A stretch of DNA of 15,650 nt, from the IMG/VR virus record IMGVR_UViG_2703718817_000011. The stretch is one strand, 5' to 3'. The position numbers were made by a program, and so were the translations under genes. Below, in pieces: positions 3,796 to 14,432 of the stretch. The stretch is from a virus (lineage: Duplodnaviria; Heunggongvirae; Uroviricota; Caudoviricetes). Position 1 is the first letter of the stretch; each line of letters starts with the position of its first letter. The notes beneath the pieces were generated by a model. The model was not told the origin of the DNA. It saw only the letters and a program-made list of their open reading frames with translations, and did not search any database.

Positions 3796-4091
3796 CAGTA
3801 CACCCCCACATCACGGTAAGCCGTCCAGAGTGCGCCTATCGTCATGGGTACGCGTGTTTTTGCGTTATCCGCGACAATCTGGCGATTTTCATACAGGTGA
3901 GCGATAAACATCATGCAGCCAATCTTTATGGCTGGCGTGAACTCCAGCCCGTCATCAAAGCGCCTGCCTATGTGTATCTGGCACGCCTCAAGCGATGCGG
4001 CAATGTATCCGCTGATTAACTGGTCTTCATCGTCGCCATCGATGCGGCAATGGAGTTTCACTTCTTCCAGGGTGATAAGTTCTTCTGTCAT
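3795..4091 (-). CDS. Head-tail connector protein (gp6-like DNA packaging protein)
   Basis: 98-aa ORF; N-terminal ITLEEVKLHCRIDGDDEDQLI pattern typical of gp6-like connectors (recollection); ATGA overlap with the upstream gene. Confidence 0.65.
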   Translation of the reverse strand: MTEELITLEEVKLHCRIDGDDEDQLISGYIAASLEACQIHIGRRFDDGLEFTPAIKIGCMMFIAHLYENRQIVADNAKTRVPMTIGALWTAYRDVGVY

Positions 4092-8949: not shown

Positions 8950-8950
8950 C

Positions 8951-9155
8951 TCCCCACCTATACCCACTTTTACTCCCCACTTTTCACAATTCCCCATCTC
9001 GTTAAAGGCGTGGGATTTGTAATTTTTATCATGCTGTTTCATAAGGATTTTTTTGCTCCCCACTTTTTGGGATGTATACAGGTCAAAAAGTGGGGGATTG
9101 TGTTTAAATTTTGTTAAATTCCCCATACCCACCACTTTTGCCACCCACTTTTTAC
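8951..9155. repeat. Putative replication origin: CCCCACTTTT-type iterons flanking an AT-rich segment
   Basis: At least six copies of CCACTTTT in both orientations (about 8965, 8977, 9060, 9084 inverted, 9133, 9146) around an AT-rich stretch at 9011-9056, immediately 3' of the replication gene. Confidence 0.5.
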
Positions 9156-10561
9156 AGTGGCCCTACATCATCGCCGTCAACATAGATAACGCCGTCTTTT
9201 TCCAGCTTGCCCAGCCAGCGCCGGAAGTGCTTTATTTCGTACCCCAGTTTTTTCATGTCATCACGTAACAGCGGGATCGTGCACTTGTCGCCGTTCTGTG
9301 TGCGTGAACGGATACACCCCCATAGCGCGGTATGGTTTTCCGTCTTGTTGCCTGCCTCTTCGATGCGCTCCAGTTCAACGGGAGGGCGCGGCTTATCCAC
9401 CACCACCAGCGACGTGATTAACTCCCCGTCAGCGTCGGTAAAAAGCTCCACCACCCGCAAATCATAGGCAGCCTCTTTGAGTTCCTCCGCGTCCTTCATT
9501 TTGGTGCATGAGATAACCAGCGCTTCGCTTCCTGCGTCCTCCCTGCGTATCCGGTATTCAGCATCCAGTGATGCACGAAATGCACTGGAACCGCGCGCGC
9601 CTTTCGTCTCATCCTTGCCGGAATGGTGAACCACCAGCACCGTGGCCCCTGTGCGTCGTTTCAGTTCGTCACACCCACGGATAAACGCCCCCATGTCGCG
9701 GGAGTCATTTTCATCATTGCCGCCAAAGCAGCGCGCCAGCGTGTCCAGAATAATCATGCGAACAGGTTTACCCGTTTCCCTCTCCACCTGACTGGCAGCA
9801 ATAACCAGTTCATCAACATCAAGCGGGACAGCCGGAAAGATGGGACGGTTTACCAGATACAGATTTTTCACCTGCTCACCGTGCACAACCTCCCAGGCTT
9901 TTACACGACGCGGAACGCCGATACCGCCTTCACCAACCACATAGAGAACAGCGCCATGCGCCACCCTGCGGCCTCCCCACTGGCGGCCCGTGGAAACGTG
10001 ACACGCCCACGATCCGGCAAGGAATGATTTATAGGAACCGCTCGCCCCGTATATGCTGCAAAGCGACGATGCCGGAATAATCCCCTTTACCACGTAATCA
10101 AGTTGTGTGTCGTATCCGGTAGATCCAACGCTCATCGGTAGCGTGGTTTTTCGCTGGGGGATTTTTTTCATGACCAGGCTTTCCCCGCGTTCCCATGCCT
10201 CCCTAAGCCGTGGAAGCTGGTCGCTCCATTCCTCCAGCAATTCGAAATTTTCAGAAAGTAGCCGCGCCTCCTGGACTCCGGCGATCGCCAGTTTCGTGGC
10301 GATGGTTAACAGCTGCGGCTCTTCAATATTTCCGGCGCGTATCACCGTCGCCCTGTATCGCCCATCATCAACAATCTGGAGGTTATCCAGTTCGCTTAAC
10401 TGATAACGCCCCAGATAAACGGGAGGGACTGGATCGCCTGCTTTTTTGGCCTGTGCAATGATGTAATGCTCTGCGAATGAGTGAGCATCAATACCCGCAA
10501 AAATAATCGCATCGGTGTATTTGTCTTTCGGTAATAGTTTTACGTTCGGTGCCAGTTTCAT
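9152..10561 (-). CDS. Replication initiator/helicase-type ATPase (AAA_25/RepA-like), candidate PICI Pri-Rep
   Basis: 469 aa with Walker A GASGSYKS, Walker B-like MIILDTL and an HHSGK motif typical of AAA_25 RecA-like replication proteins; N-terminal domain about 150 aa of unknown type. Confidence 0.7.
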   Translation of the reverse strand: MKLAPNVKLLPKDKYTDAIIFAGIDAHSFAEHYIIAQAKKAGDPVPPVYLGRYQLSELDNLQIVDDGRYRATVIRAGNIEEPQLLTIATKLAIAGVQEARLLSENFELLEEWSDQLPRLREAWERGESLVMKKIPQRKTTLPMSVGSTGYDTQLDYVVKGIIPASSLCSIYGASGSYKSFLAGSWACHVSTGRQWGGRRVAHGAVLYVVGEGGIGVPRRVKAWEVVHGEQVKNLYLVNRPIFPAVPLDVDELVIAASQVERETGKPVRMIILDTLARCFGGNDENDSRDMGAFIRGCDELKRRTGATVLVVHHSGKDETKGARGSSAFRASLDAEYRIRREDAGSEALVISCTKMKDAEELKEAAYDLRVVELFTDADGELITSLVVVDKPRPPVELERIEEAGNKTENHTALWGCIRSRTQNGDKCTIPLLRDDMKKLGYEIKHFRRWLGKLEKDGVIYVDGDDVGPL

Positions 10562-11555: not shown

Positions 11556-11757
11556 AAAGCATCCCCTGAATATTCGTGTTAATCATTCCGGCACGTTTTG
11601 TGATTTCCTGTAATGATTCCCTTGTGGCGACAATTGCTTCATCTGGTAAGTGGTAATTACACACCACGCGACCTTTATCCACATTGACCAGTAGCTGCCC
11701 TGTGAATTTCTCACGAAACTGAATGCGGTTAAGGTCAGTAAGTGACAGATTAATCAT
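11545..11757 (-). CDS. Hypothetical protein (70 aa)
   Basis: ATG 11757 preceded by a strong AGGAGGTG SD and overlapping the upstream stop. Confidence 0.5.
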   Translation of the reverse strand: MINLSLTDLNRIQFREKFTGQLLVNVDKGRVVCNYHLPDEAIVATRESLQEITKRAGMINTNIQGMLYAQ

Positions 11758-12307
11758 GGCGCACCTCCTGACGAATACGGGCGGCAAATACAGCAACACA
11801 ACCGGACGGGCAACGGTTACGCGCTTCGCGTTCCGTCCAGGCGGTTACGTGGATGATTTGATGGTCTGACGCGCCAAAGGCAATAAAGCGCCAGATAAAG
11901 GCTGTTTGAGAATGTACGAGGGCAGGGGTAGTAGCCATGTTGGCAGCCTCCTCAGTGTGGTTAAGATAACCGCCACGCAAAAGGCTAATTTCGCTGGTGG
12001 CGGACTGTACAGGGTTAGCCTTACCGGACACTGAAGAAACCGGCGCGGATTGCTCCGCCCCCGTACAGCCCACCATTGATAAGGTGTGACTATGCGGCAC
12101 AAAAAAACACGCGGGACGCGTGCTGTGCGCTTCAGTTGTTTTCAGGAGGCTAATCCCGACACCCGTTTTATGAGGTGCGCGGGAATCATAGCTATTTTCG
12201 ACACTGGCGATCAACTGGTTTTTTTCTCCGATATTCAGGGCCAGAAAACGCCACACAAAGGCAGTTTGTGTGTGTACAAGGTGTGGTATATGATTTACAG
12301 CAACCAT
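11750..12307 (-). CDS. Icd-like (P4 host cell division inhibitor-like) protein with tandem duplicated domain and internal start
   Basis: ATG 12307 with an AGGAG SD; two copies of an LVH(T/S)QTAF(V/I)WRF segment; second in-frame ATG at 11938 has its own GAGGAGG SD; Icd-like call from recollection of P4-like island proteins. Confidence 0.5.
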   Translation of the reverse strand: MVAVNHIPHLVHTQTAFVWRFLALNIGEKNQLIASVENSYDSRAPHKTGVGISLLKTTEAHSTRPACFFVPHSHTLSMVGCTGAEQSAPVSSVSGKANPVQSATSEISLLRGGYLNHTEEAANMATTPALVHSQTAFIWRFIAFGASDHQIIHVTAWTEREARNRCPSGCVAVFAARIRQEVRHD

Positions 12308-12398
12308 AACGGCTCCTAGTTTACGTTGTTGGTTAGAAGCCCTGCGAGTGGTAACGACACTTGCGGGGCTTTGTCTTTTCATCGATTACCTTGATAAA

Positions 12399-12487
12399 GG
12401 TGTCAGCCACTATATTAGTAACGGGTGTCAGCCACGTCAATAGTGTTTTTCCGTTTTCTTGTGTGTATACTGTCAGCCACCTAATAA
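12399..12487. promoter_or_regulatory. Divergent promoter/operator region with three direct repeats of GGTGTCAGCCAC
   Basis: Repeats at 12399-12410, 12424-12435 and 12470-12480; minus-strand TTGACG-17nt-TAATAT (12435-12440 and 12412-12417) with a repeat in the spacer; plus-strand TATACT (12466-12471) or TTGTGT-17nt-TAATAA. Confidence 0.45.
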
Positions 12488-12501
12488 CGAGGAAATCAGA
12501 T

Positions 12502-12681
12502 ATGGCAACAAAAGCAGTTAATGCAAAATCCAAAAAGCTTGAGGCTCGAGTACCACACGCAATAGCTGATGCTGTAGAAAATTTAAAGGAAGATGGCGAA
12601 AGTACAGGGCAATTTATCGTTTCGGCACTTGAAGGCGAGATCAAACGCCGCCAGCGCCGCAAGGCCAAAGAATCAGAATAA
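12502..12681 (+). CDS. Ribbon-helix-helix (CopG/Arc-like) DNA-binding protein, 59 aa
   Basis: ATG 12502 with a GGAA SD; predicted beta-strand/helix/helix layout (KLEARVPHAIADAVENLKEDGESTGQFIVSALEGEIKRR); divergent from the replication operon. Confidence 0.55.
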   Translation: MATKAVNAKSKKLEARVPHAIADAVENLKEDGESTGQFIVSALEGEIKRRQRRKAKESE

Positions 12682-12738
12682 TCACTATCAGCGCCGTGGT
12701 GTGAGGTACTACGGCGCATTGCTTTACAGGGCAGTATC

Positions 12739-12966
12739 ATGACCAACAACACACTATCACCAATACAAGACACGCAAACGCAAGATGATGAATTCATCCG
12801 GCAAAGGCAGTCAGAAGCCTGCGCCAGACTTGAGGAAGAACTAACCAGAACAAAAATACCACCACCAGCGCCGCGCTTAGTGCCACCAGAAAAATTTGCC
12901 CTTGAAGATTTTGTCGATAAATACCCACGGCGGCTTAAATCCGGCAAAAACCGACCGCCAGGATGA
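12739..12966 (+). CDS. Small protein of unknown function (75 aa), partner of the upstream RHH gene
   Basis: ATG 12739 follows the conserved 44-nt hairpin element; paralogous to 13423..13626. Confidence 0.45.
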   Translation: MTNNTLSPIQDTQTQDDEFIRQRQSEACARLEEELTRTKIPPPAPRLVPPEKFALEDFVDKYPRRLKSGKNRPPG

Positions 12967-13084
12967 GTGCACAAAACCGAACTATGAAACGGATTATTCC
13001 GTTTCCGGGGCGTTTGTGTGTGTATAAAGAGTAAGCTATGCTCTTTTATAGCCATAATCGTTCCTCAATTAATGGTTTGGTTAG

Positions 13085-13128
13085 ACGCCCCGTATGTGTT
13101 CCCATCACTGCGGGGCGTTGTTTTTTGT
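13085..13128 (+). terminator. Intrinsic terminator after the first RHH module
   Basis: 8-bp GC-rich stem ACGCCCCG / CGGGGCGT followed by TGTTTTTTG. Confidence 0.5.
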
Positions 13129-13185
13129 GCTAGTTGTGTGTAATGTGTATATACACATAAACACATTATATGGGGTGTAATTGAC

Positions 13186-13365
13186 GTGTCAACACACAAA
13201 AATGAAAGGCGTGGTAATCCTCCTTTCCAGTTCCGTTTAGATCCTGACTTACGGGAAAAGATGGAAAAAGCACAACAACAAGACGGTGATGACTCTTTAG
13301 CTGCTTGGATAAAACGAATAATCCGAAAAGAATTACAGCAACGCGGTATTGAACCCAAAGAATAA
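13186..13365 (+). CDS. Arc-like ribbon-helix-helix protein, about 59 aa (start uncertain, GTG proposed)
   Basis: Not in the ORF track (below 60 aa with a non-ATG start); hand translation gives VSTHKNERRGNPPFQFRLDPDLREKMEKAQQQDGDDSLAAWIKRIIRKELQQRGIEPKE, resembling P22 Arc; GGGGTG SD-like 8 nt upstream. Confidence 0.5.
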   Translation: MSTHKNERRGNPPFQFRLDPDLREKMEKAQQQDGDDSLAAWIKRIIRKELQQRGIEPKE

Positions 13366-13422
13366 AAAACATCAGCGCCGTGGCGTGAGGAACTCCGGCG
13401 CATTGCTTTACAGGTACACACA

Positions 13423-13626
13423 ATGACCAATAAAGAATCAACCAATACACCATCGCAAAAAACGAACAGAGAGCACGAAAATATGGCGCTCGAGCATGAA
13501 TCAGAAAGATTCGCTCCATGCGCTTTTGTCCTTGATGAGTTTCTAAAAAAATATTCACGTTCTGAACGGATGAAAATGGCAGCACAATACGGCCCCAACA
13601 AGCAAGGTAATTGCCCACCAGCCTGA
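13423..13626 (+). CDS. Small protein of unknown function (67 aa), paralogue of 12739..12966
   Basis: ATG 13423 follows the second copy of the 44-nt element; both proteins start MTN and share a C-terminal F(A/V)L(E/D)(D/E)F..KY.R motif. Confidence 0.45.
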   Translation: MTNKESTNTPSQKTNREHENMALEHESERFAPCAFVLDEFLKKYSRSERMKMAAQYGPNKQGNCPPA

Positions 13627-13699
13627 TAGCGGCTATCATTCCCGTGCTTATGTTTGGGATCACATACACATAAGGCGCAGCAGGTTAATTGTTCAGAAA

Positions 13700-13728
13700 G
13701 GCGGCTCCATATCGGGGCCGCTTTTTTT
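13700..13728 (+). terminator. Intrinsic terminator after the second RHH module
   Basis: GCGGC / GCCGC stem followed by seven T. Confidence 0.5.
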
Positions 13729-13869
13729 ATGCCTGAAAAACCCCAATTTTGTTGTTTTTCAGTTTCACCAGGGCGAACGAATCCCCGCCCACGTTCGGGC
13801 GCATATTCAATCTTCATAGTTATATCTCTGTATTAGTGGATGTGTGGCGACTGTGTGCCGCCAGTCTTT

Positions 13870-14058
13870 TTAGTGAACTGCCTTGCAGCTATCCTTCCAG
13901 GCCAAAACCTCAGATAAAGACCAGCCAACAGAACGCCCACCAAGTTTACGACGTGATGGGAATTGTCCGGCCTTTTCCAGGCGGTAGCGGCATGAGCGGC
14001 TAAGGCCTGTTAGCTTTTCGCATTCTTTTTCACGTATAAACCGATCAGTGCTTAACAC
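13870..14058 (-). CDS. alpA: AlpA-family phage regulatory protein (excisionase/transcriptional regulator-like)
   Basis: 62 aa, apparent GTG start with an AAGGGGG SD; winged-helix excisionase-like sequence (LTGLSRSCRYRLEKAGQFP ... GWSLSEVLAW); downstream of and co-directional with int. Confidence 0.78.
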   Translation of the reverse strand: MLSTDRFIREKECEKLTGLSRSCRYRLEKAGQFPSRRKLGGRSVGWSLSEVLAWKDSCKAVH

Positions 14059-14219
14059 TATTGCCCCCTTTCGTTTCTTAAAGAGTTATTTCGTGTTCTA
14101 TTGCGTTGGGATGTGTCTGATTGTGTCAGGATGATTCAGAGTTGGCAAATGTTGGTGTCGCATGGTTTACAGAAAGAGGAATAATCAGGATAAAATCATT
14201 TAAATTCATGTTAATACAA

Positions 14220-14249
14220 AGGCATAAAATCTTGTTTTATGCCTTTTTT
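14220..14249 (+). terminator. Strong stem-loop plus T-tract in the int-alpA intergenic region
   Basis: 10-bp stem AGGCATAAAA / TTTTATGCCT, 5-nt loop, then TTTTT; could act bidirectionally to end int transcription. Confidence 0.45.
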
Positions 14250-14340
14250 CGCACACTTTAACGCGTAATTCACTAATGTATAAAAAACCAGCTGAGCATT
14301 AAAAATCAGCAACTTACAAATCTGTATTCTTTTTGGCCTC

Positions 14341-14390
14341 TTGTTCGTGATTGTGTCACGTTGTTGCACATTGTTTCTCGTTGTATCTGT
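14341..14390. repeat. Five helically phased decamers each beginning TTGT
   Basis: ttgttcgtga ttgtgtcacg ttgttgcaca ttgtttctcg ttgtatctgt with an exact 10-bp period, between int and alpA. Confidence 0.55.
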
Positions 14391-14432
14391 GCACTTATCC
14401 AGTATGCGCATACTGAAAAAACACGAAAAAAA

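Follow-up and report, generated by a model that had tools for sequence, protein, structure and literature searches.

In the immI region of phage P22, the two ribbon-helix-helix (RHH) repressors Mnt and Arc act on the overlapping divergent promoters Pant and Pmnt, and an antisense RNA, sar, belongs to the same region. The base-contacting residues of Arc are Gln9, Asn11 and Arg13. Omega of pSM19035 and CopG are further RHH repressors, which act on short repeated units. In the satellite P4, the isrK/seqA RNA, the C4/CI RNA and the end of a kil-like ORF follow one another in this order, and the promoter upstream of them is under the control of Delta and of the helix-turn-helix protein Vis, whose gene lies downstream of the promoter. 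This regulated upstream promoter, P_LL, reportedly escapes immunity because the long ORF eta is translated across the region. The CI RNA pairs with seqA and seqC, which leads to premature termination (PMC4825925). In SaPIs, the Stl/Rpr repressors are encoded in a divergent gene pair between int and the replication-packaging genes and are thus placed to silence the island (PMC6092414); they are large helix-turn-helix proteins, and proteins of the helper phage inactivate them. For Gram-negative PICIs, the published view is that they have no identified resident repressor and that control is exerted via the activator AlpA (PMC6092414), which is required for the induction of PICIs and of capsid-forming PICIs (cf-PICIs) (PMC6092414; 10.1101/2022.09.08.507074).

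The DNA that was analysed here, a stretch of 15,650 nucleotides that is called the window in the following, is a cf-PICI as judged from its genes, i.e., it has its own capsid and packaging set together with int, alpA and a replicase, while tail and lysis genes are missing. This gene set has been described for cf-PICIs (10.1101/2022.09.08.507074). Pfam matches were found for TerL, TerS, HNH, a head-tail connector, a head completion protein, a portal, a prohead protease, the major capsid protein, PerC, SSB, a RepA-type helicase (AAA_25), DUF4222, AlpA (Phage_AlpA; gene at 13870-14058 on the minus strand) and a tyrosine integrase, and all of these genes are oriented leftward. Annotated relatives of the island are L001 and L082, the latter being an O157:H7 island. 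The stretch 12330-12690 (361 bp) recurs with 100% identity in many E. coli genomes, among others in the island inserted in tqsA of O157:H7 strains, which we take to be EcCIEDL933 on the basis of the genes it carries and of its host. When these 361 bp were used as a query, 511 of the 5,426 complete E. coli genomes were matched, and in 196 of these the match covered 80% or more of the query.

The locus of interest shares features with each of the systems mentioned above. As with P22 Mnt and Arc, a small RHH gene diverges from the promoter that it would control, the candidate operators overlap the cores of back-to-back promoters, and self-regulation is to be expected. As with Arc, DNA specificity would reside in the N-terminal strand, and the protein of a second, neighbouring module ("module B") matches the PHROG "Arc-like repressor". 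In analogy to sar, a short antisense RNA could cover the start of the first regulated gene. In contrast to P22, there is no significant sequence similarity to its repressors (hhalign probability 24%), three separate 11-bp dimer-sized sites are present instead of one tetramer operator of 21 bp or 17 bp, the genes under control would be an icd/kil-like gene and replication genes and not an antirepressor gene, and the carrier is a satellite and not a phage. With P4 the island shares the sequence of an upstream promoter, a constitutive-type promoter, isrK/seqA and C4/CI, after which a longer ORF ends as a kil-like gene nested in it. Unlike in P4, however, vis is missing between the leftward promoters and a divergent RHH gene with candidate sites over the promoter is found instead, and a RepA-type helicase is encoded instead of the alpha primase. 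Because of these differences and of its own capsid set, the island was not filed as P4-like, a group that is marked by the alpha primase, sid/delta/psu and Vis at P_LL. The position of the putative repressor gene, in a divergent pair between int and the replication and packaging genes, is that of the SaPI repressors, but here the protein has only 59 aa and an RHH fold is predicted. Lastly, Omega heptads form contiguous arrays, whereas in the present locus 21-45 bp separate the sites, each of which lies on a specific promoter element.

Repeats and promoter elements in the divergent gap

The gap between the divergent genes extends from the ATG at 12307 (minus strand) to the ATG at 12502 (plus strand) and is 194 bp long, one base pair less than had been stated in the original prediction. 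It contains two exact copies of GGTGTCAGCCAC, at 12399-12410 and 12424-12435, and a third copy, ACTGTCAGCCAC at 12469-12480, which is identical to the former at 10 of 12 positions. The earlier description of three copies of a 12-bp direct repeat can be refined in that the functional unit is not a simple direct repeat, but an 11-bp pseudo-palindrome. It has the form GTG-N5-CAC at 12400-12410 and 12425-12435 and the form CTG-N5-CAC at 12470-12480, and its size is consistent with the binding of an RHH dimer.

The three copies have the exact core TGTCAGCCAC in common, which is present exactly three times, always on the plus strand (12401-12410, 12426-12435 and 12471-12480), at distances of 25 bp and 45 bp. 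A search for the 12-mer with up to two mismatches yielded three sites versus 1.17 expected, and 23 of 200 shuffled sequences also reached three, so that this test was not significant alone. In contrast, an exact 10-mer in three copies within 100 bp did not occur in any of 300 first-order Markov simulations of the window, and the predicted clustering of three repeats near both promoters is thus real. An additional copy with up to two mismatches was not found in the whole 15.65-kb window.

A consensus scan revealed a leftward promoter, P_L(A), at 12412..12440 on the minus strand (TTGACG-17-TAATAT), with the -35 element at 12440-12435 and the -10 element at 12417-12412. The candidate operator O1 (GTGTCAGCCAC, 12400..12410) is located one base past this -10 element and covers the predicted transcription start site, while the candidate operator O2 (also GTGTCAGCCAC, 12425..12435) overlaps the last base of the -35 element and extends over the adjoining 10 bp of the spacer. 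On the other side, the conservation profile contains the motif TATACT at 12466..12471 on the plus strand, 31 bp upstream of the ATG of the RHH gene, which would serve as the -10 element of a rightward promoter. The candidate operator O3 (CTGTCAGCCAC, 12470..12480) is fused to its last two bases and lies over the predicted start site of the RHH gene transcript. All three candidate operators were read on the plus strand. The promoter scan and the coordinates hence agreed with the placement that had been predicted, namely the leftward spacer, the leftward +1 and the rightward -10. The rightward promoter has a good -10 element, and a recognisable -35 element was not found in it. Upstream of TATACT a T-rich tract is present, which on the opposite strand could be an UP-like element for P_L.

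The 59-aa protein and its covariation with the cores of the candidate operators

The rightward gene (12502..12681, plus strand) encodes a 59-aa protein of the YlcI/YnfO family. In the predicted model about 45 residues adopt a strand-helix-helix fold, as is typical for RHH proteins, and residues 11-17 (KKLEARV) form the predicted strand. NCBIfam NF041551 (YlcI/YnfO) was matched over residues 9-50 with 60.6 bits versus a cut-off of 30, and phrog_949 was matched with an E value of 3e-23. The Pfam RHH models gave no match at E <= 0.01. A PDB profile search retrieved Arc at an E value of 0.8, and in a single hhalign comparison residues 11-36 were aligned with Arc 8-34 with a probability of only 24% (E 8e-4). 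In this alignment of 24% probability K12, E14 and R16 correspond to the Arc residues Gln9, Asn11 and Arg13, and K12, E14 and R16 are predicted to read the DNA. One database homologue has been labelled "CopG-like ribbon-helix-helix" by its source. When 50,697 phage records, among them that of P4, were searched with the protein by tblastn, no match was obtained. In the literature searched, functional work on YlcI, YnfO, DUF3950 or an RHH regulator in PICIs was not found; the family and its putative role in satellites thus seem to be undescribed there, while a small RHH repressor acting on divergent promoters is a well-known kind of regulator.

For a comparison with other loci, one genome per species was scanned, which revealed 80 loci encoding relatives of the protein. 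Fifty-nine of them were usable, and they stem from about 30 genera of the Enterobacterales. The architecture turned out to be conserved: In 52 of the 59 usable loci the position relative to the ATG is -77 for site 2 and -32 for site 3. The -77 site is always followed by (G/T/C)TCAA, which represents the leftward -35 element, and the -32 site is fused to TATACT. The equivalents of O1 are more variable; they lie at -98 to -112 and occur in either orientation, being inverted in some of the loci. An information profile was calculated with one representative for each of 20 classes. The GTG/CAC arms, TCAA and GTATACTG had 1.4-2.0 bits across the 20 classes, with TCAA, i.e., the TTGA of the leftward -35 element, reaching 2.0 bits, and GTATACTG was near-invariant at the O3 position in all 20 specificity classes. 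The five core positions, in contrast, had only 0.1-0.6 bits. The three cores are nearly always identical within a locus, and they have therefore changed in concert between lineages. An operator site almost never recurs elsewhere in its own locus.

The variation of the cores was mirrored by the predicted strand of the RHH protein. The loci comprised 24 variants of the strand and 20 cores, with only one core for almost every variant. The strand KKLEARV of the window protein goes with the site GTGTCAGCCAC, KRFDVRV with GTGTC(G/C)GACAC, QT(I/L/V)AARV with GTGTTGAACAC, Q(S/A)LK(S/A)RV with GTGTGGCCCAC, QMTTVRI with GTGA(A/C)ATACAC, QQLNARF with GTGAATCGCAC, QS(V/I)T(A/V)R(I/V) with GTGTCTTACAC, and LQVSVRL with GTGAACACCAC; further classes of strands and sites showed the same pattern. 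Residue 14 was the most informative column, with an entropy of 2.77 bits and a mutual information with the core of likewise 2.77 bits, and it was followed by residue 12 (2.39 bits and 2.35 bits, respectively). No other positions vary as much as these two, and the operator core determines them almost completely. Arg16 is invariant, as are the GTG/CAC arms opposite to it. Proteins with a background identity of 60-80% shared the core in 48 of 49 pairs when residues 12 and 14 were the same, but in only 13 of 377 pairs when they were different. Q12 and N14 were found in two backgrounds that are only 54-59% identical, and these are associated with the cores AATAG and AATCG. This covariation indicates, although indirectly, that the alternate residues of the N-terminal strand read the DNA, as they do in RHH proteins.

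The original prediction, that the repeats are an operator set for the RHH protein, is thus largely supported by the comparison of loci, i.e., by the conserved placement and by the covariation of core and strand, and the putative switch would occur in at least 20 natural specificity variants. Since the RHH gene lies next to the sites, shared descent accounts for part of the covariation; this objection is lessened, but not removed, by the convergent case of Q12/N14 and by the cases of dissociation described below. Islands within the same genome did not significantly avoid the same class, since one of 20 pairs shared a class versus 2.4 expected (P = 0.29).

The mosaic cassette and competing explanations

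A sliding identity analysis of three E. coli islands, namely the window, L001 and L083, revealed a mosaic cassette at 12324..12642, which contains a hairpin, the operators, both promoters and codons 1-47 of the RHH gene. The identity drops to 50-70% over this stretch, while it is 95-100% in the flanks, and the boundaries are sharp. Codons 1-47, which encode the half of the RHH protein that is predicted to read DNA, are the sole protein-coding sequence within the swapped stretch. This suggests that the cassette has been exchanged by recombination in the conserved 5' end of the icd-like gene and in the C-terminal tail of the RHH gene. The three islands encode an identical AlpA of 62 aa, yet they have the three different cores TCAGC, TCTTA and TTGAA, and the RHH strand variant found with each of these cores is the one that goes with it in other genera, too. 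RepA is 97.7% identical in the window and in L001, and still the operators differ. Conversely, L082 encodes an unrelated replicase with DUF927, but has an identical module. The operators thus follow neither AlpA nor the replicase, which argues against AlpA sites and against replication iterons.

These observations bear on two alternatives. If the repeats were AlpA sites, AlpA would switch on the leftward operon there, either as an activator or by antiterminator loading. AlpA, which is needed for induction (PMC6092414; 10.1101/2022.09.08.507074), must have a site of action somewhere on the leftward genes, and AlpA of P. aeruginosa recognises a DNA element within a promoter (PMC9371919). However, one and the same AlpA coexists with three classes of operators, each matched by its own RHH strand variant, and the repeat motif is absent near alpA or int in the window. 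AlpA was thus rejected as the reader of the sites, and this explanation is regarded as very improbable. Slightly less probable still is that the repeats are iterons of an origin that is bound by the replicase of the island, as in P4, which has its ori repeats in the divergent region between P_LL and P_sid. Short direct repeats are typical of iterons, and in the P4 record ori type 1 and type 2 repeats are found at 9086-9809, between vis and sid. But the repeat sequence does not track the initiator, and the repA helicase gene is directly followed by a separate iteron-like cluster (8950-9155). This cluster contains three copies of TTTTRCTCCCCACTTTT with a spacing of about 84 bp, further copies of CCCCAC/GTGGGG and AT-rich stretches, and it is a probable replication origin; such a rep-ori order has been reported for PICIs (PMC6092414).

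It is a more serious alternative, albeit an unlikely one, that the RHH protein binds to the sites without repressing the main operon, either as an accessory autoregulator of the antitoxin or centromere-binding type or because it acts on the helper phage. In this case the neighbourhood does not fit, because a ParA-type or toxin-like gene is not adjacent to the RHH gene, the ORF that follows it (orf75) has no family match and is missing from the O157:H7 island of the EcCIEDL933 type, and the RHH protein is devoid of a C-terminal toxin-binding extension. Moreover, two of the three sites bracket the leftward -10 element, and this placement, which pure autoregulation would not need, is conserved in 20 classes. 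The assumption that repeats and hexamers are chance or relic sequences would agree with the non-significant result for the 12-mer with two mismatches, but it can practically be dismissed in view of the lack of an exact triple 10-mer in the simulations, the recurrence of the architecture in about 60 loci of about 30 genera, and the concerted change of the cores.

A putative repressor switch upstream of immunity RNAs and replication genes

The reading that fits these data best, and that we consider to be likely, is that the three sites are operators of the adjacent RHH protein, which would form a repressor switch over the leftward promoter, regulate its own gene, and guard a P4-like bypass of immunity. 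Computation has shown where the sites lie, which fold the protein is predicted to have, and how strand and cores covary, whereas we infer binding, repression, autoregulation and the bypass. One RHH dimer would bind to each 11-bp site and insert a two-stranded beta-ribbon into the major groove. Arg16 would read the GTG/CAC arms, and residues 12 and 14 (Lys and Glu) would read the central TCAGC. If this recognition code holds, the exchanges K12R/E14D would shift the preference from GTGTCAGCCAC to GTGTCGGACAC, and K12T/E14A would shift it to GTGTTGAACAC. O1 over the start site and O2 against the -35 element would together exclude RNA polymerase from the leftward promoter, which would drive the icd/kil-like gene, the replication genes and probably also the packaging genes. 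The spacing of O1 and O2, which is 25 bp in the window and 21-35 bp in relatives, does not correspond to whole helical turns, and thus cooperative binding is uncertain. O3 has a weaker CTG arm and lies over the -10 element and the start site of the RHH promoter, and its occupation would result in negative autoregulation.

In the window, the region downstream of P_L(A) resembles the immunity region of P4. An isrK/P4 seqA-like RNA is encoded at 12102..12178 on the minus strand (Rfam RF01394, 61.6 bits versus a gathering score of 50). It has an intrinsic terminator of its own at 12124-12106 and is followed by a C4/P4 CI-like antisense immunity RNA at 11993..12080 on the same strand (RF01695, 75.4 bits versus 45). 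Matches to C4 and isrK have also been reported for PICIs (PMC10111431). A second promoter-like site for leftward transcription, TTGATC-18-TATGAT at 12185..12214 on the minus strand, would have its start site where isrK begins, and thus it corresponds in position to P4 P_LE. An ORF of 185 codons (ORF185; 11750..12307, minus strand), which has been annotated as "Ash family", starts upstream of the isrK promoter and is open through isrK and C4. It matches phrog_29966 over its full length, and it is 31% identical to the P4 "cI ORF" (E 2e-7). Its end is formed, in the same frame, by the icd/kil-like gene of 62 aa (11750..11938, minus strand; NCBIfam NF033153, phrog_1743), the first translated gene of the operon that runs into the replication genes, and this resembles the nested eta/kil arrangement of P4. 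The features of a P4-type RNA immunity are hence present, i.e., both RNAs are ordered in the leftward leader, and the kil-like gene is nested in a longer predicted ORF.

By its position, P_L(A) would be the analogue of P4 P_LL. It is located about 225 bp upstream of the isrK/C4 promoter, and its transcripts would include the start of ORF185. By analogy with P4 P_LL and eta/kil, translation of ORF185 across the immunity RNAs would allow an escape from RNA-mediated termination, and the RHH protein would thereby guard the immunity-bypass route, although transcripts from P_L(A) still meet the isrK terminator in the window. The RHH module is not generally accompanied by this RNA immunity layer, since isrK or C4 within 3 kb was found in none of 20 related loci. 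Most relatives, including the O157:H7 island, lack both RNAs and have the icd-like gene directly downstream, and the general target of the putative switch would therefore be the operon of icd-like, replication and packaging genes. The Pfam family Phage_ASH matches residues 65-158 of a 210-aa ORF (11909-12190), which covers exactly the isrK and C4 RNA genes, and thus this protein family may largely reflect conserved RNA sequence. Because of this coincidence the "Ash" ORF had been suspected to be a spurious translation of isrK and C4. The suspicion was dropped in view of the start upstream of the isrK promoter, the full-length match to phrog_29966 and the parallel with the ORF that overlaps cI in P4.

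Induction probably overrides the putative switch and does not remove it. A strain that overexpresses alpA drives the reproduction of EcCIEDL933 (10.1101/2025.02.11.637232), and as this island presumably bears the module, repression by the RHH protein would be overridden or bypassed there. In P. aeruginosa, AlpA acts as a processive antiterminator (PMC7969949, PMC9371919). The major genes from alpA leftward are all on one strand, and it may thus be speculated that transcripts reading through from the alpA promoter could bypass the switch. A more far-reaching reading can be put forward only tentatively and is less likely than its alternatives taken together: The YlcI-like RHH protein could be the resident repressor of Gram-negative PICIs and cf-PICIs and thus the counterpart of SaPI Stl, encoded on an exchangeable cassette of about 320 bp with at least 20 orthogonal specificities that represent satellite immunity types, overridden by AlpA-dependent read-through or by an anti-repressor of the helper, and with an antisense RNA as a second lock on the first gene. 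If this is true, the specificities of the cassette would define immunity types of satellites, as do the repressor-operator cassettes among lambdoid phages. The module is a concrete and easily tested candidate for the missing negative control of Gram-negative PICIs. Whatever its role, the roughly 20 matched pairs of residues 12/14 and 5-bp cores on a constant scaffold are a data set for the RHH recognition code, and the family could be a source of orthogonal small repressors for synthetic circuits.

The candidate antisense RNA is connected with the hairpin of the swapped cassette, a conserved structure at 12336..12372 on the plus strand that is followed by a T-run. Compensatory changes were found in 11 of 14 pairs among 28 sequences, and many G-U pairs are possible only on the plus strand. 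In 26 of 27 loci the plus strand folded more stably than the minus strand, which together with the T-run on the plus strand indicates that the hairpin is a rightward intrinsic terminator. A search for an Rfam family matching the hairpin was negative. In 20 of 27 loci the hairpin is preceded, at a distance of 36-39 nt, by the end of a weak promoter-like site (7-8 of 12 matches). This suggests a candidate antisense RNA of about 80 nt, which would cover the ribosome-binding site and the start of the first leftward ORF and have its 3' end at the hairpin. The stretch is also coding on the other strand, and its conservation therefore proves little. A conserved CTCC in the candidate RNA would pair with the Shine-Dalgarno sequence.

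Module B (13055..13626) is a diverged paralogue of the module described above (module A). It contains the start of a truncated leftward ORF (ATG at 13055) and, at about 13081-13117, a paralogue of the hairpin of module A. The consensus scan yielded a perfect leftward promoter, TTGACA-16-TATAAT, at 13192-13165 on the minus strand, and the direct repeats of module A are replaced by an inverted repeat, TAATGTGT-N13-ACACATTA, at 13141-13148 and 13162-13169. The 59-aa RHH gene of module B (13186-13365, plus strand) has a GTG start that overlaps the -35 element, and its product is Arc-like (phrog_228, Arc-like repressor; E 1.5e-6). Downstream of this gene come another hairpin (13376-13402) and orf67 (13423-13626, plus strand), and in relatives PGAP annotates both plus-strand ORFs. 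The tandem of modules A and B recurs in the E. coli islands L001 and L083, while the O157:H7 island has only module A. Leftward transcripts from the module B promoter would run antisense through module A.

Two minus-strand ORFs of 240 aa (12333-13055) and 250 aa (13065-13817), which run antisense to the two RHH modules and cover the control regions, were rejected as probably not being genes, as they had no family matches, PGAP annotates the opposite strand in relatives, and the plus-strand proteins belong to conserved families. A similar antisense ORF of 336 aa is present in L028.

Several minor observations concern other parts of the islands. In the whole window, 10-mers that occur twice within 100 bp are frequent, with 19 found versus 1.8 expected, e.g., at 709-792 and 3984-4052. 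The int-alpA RNA motif (RF02996) was present in seven of 20 related loci (L020, L022, L023, L028, L045, L051 and L071), typically about 2.5-3 kb to the right of the RHH gene, with the match in L051 about 2 kb away on the other side. In the int-alpA spacer of the window (14059-14432) RF02996 was not detected, and a weak BSnc120-like match was found at 14204-14282 (27.9 bits, far below the gathering score). Each of the two RHH genes is followed by a plus-strand ORF, orf75 (75 aa, 12739-12966) and orf67 (67 aa), respectively. Their products share the motif F-x-L-(D/E)-(D/E)-F-x-x-K-Y-x-R, and both are missing from the O157:H7 island. In the window they are preceded by near-identical hairpins, at 12691-12717 in the case of orf75 and at 13376-13402 in the case of orf67.
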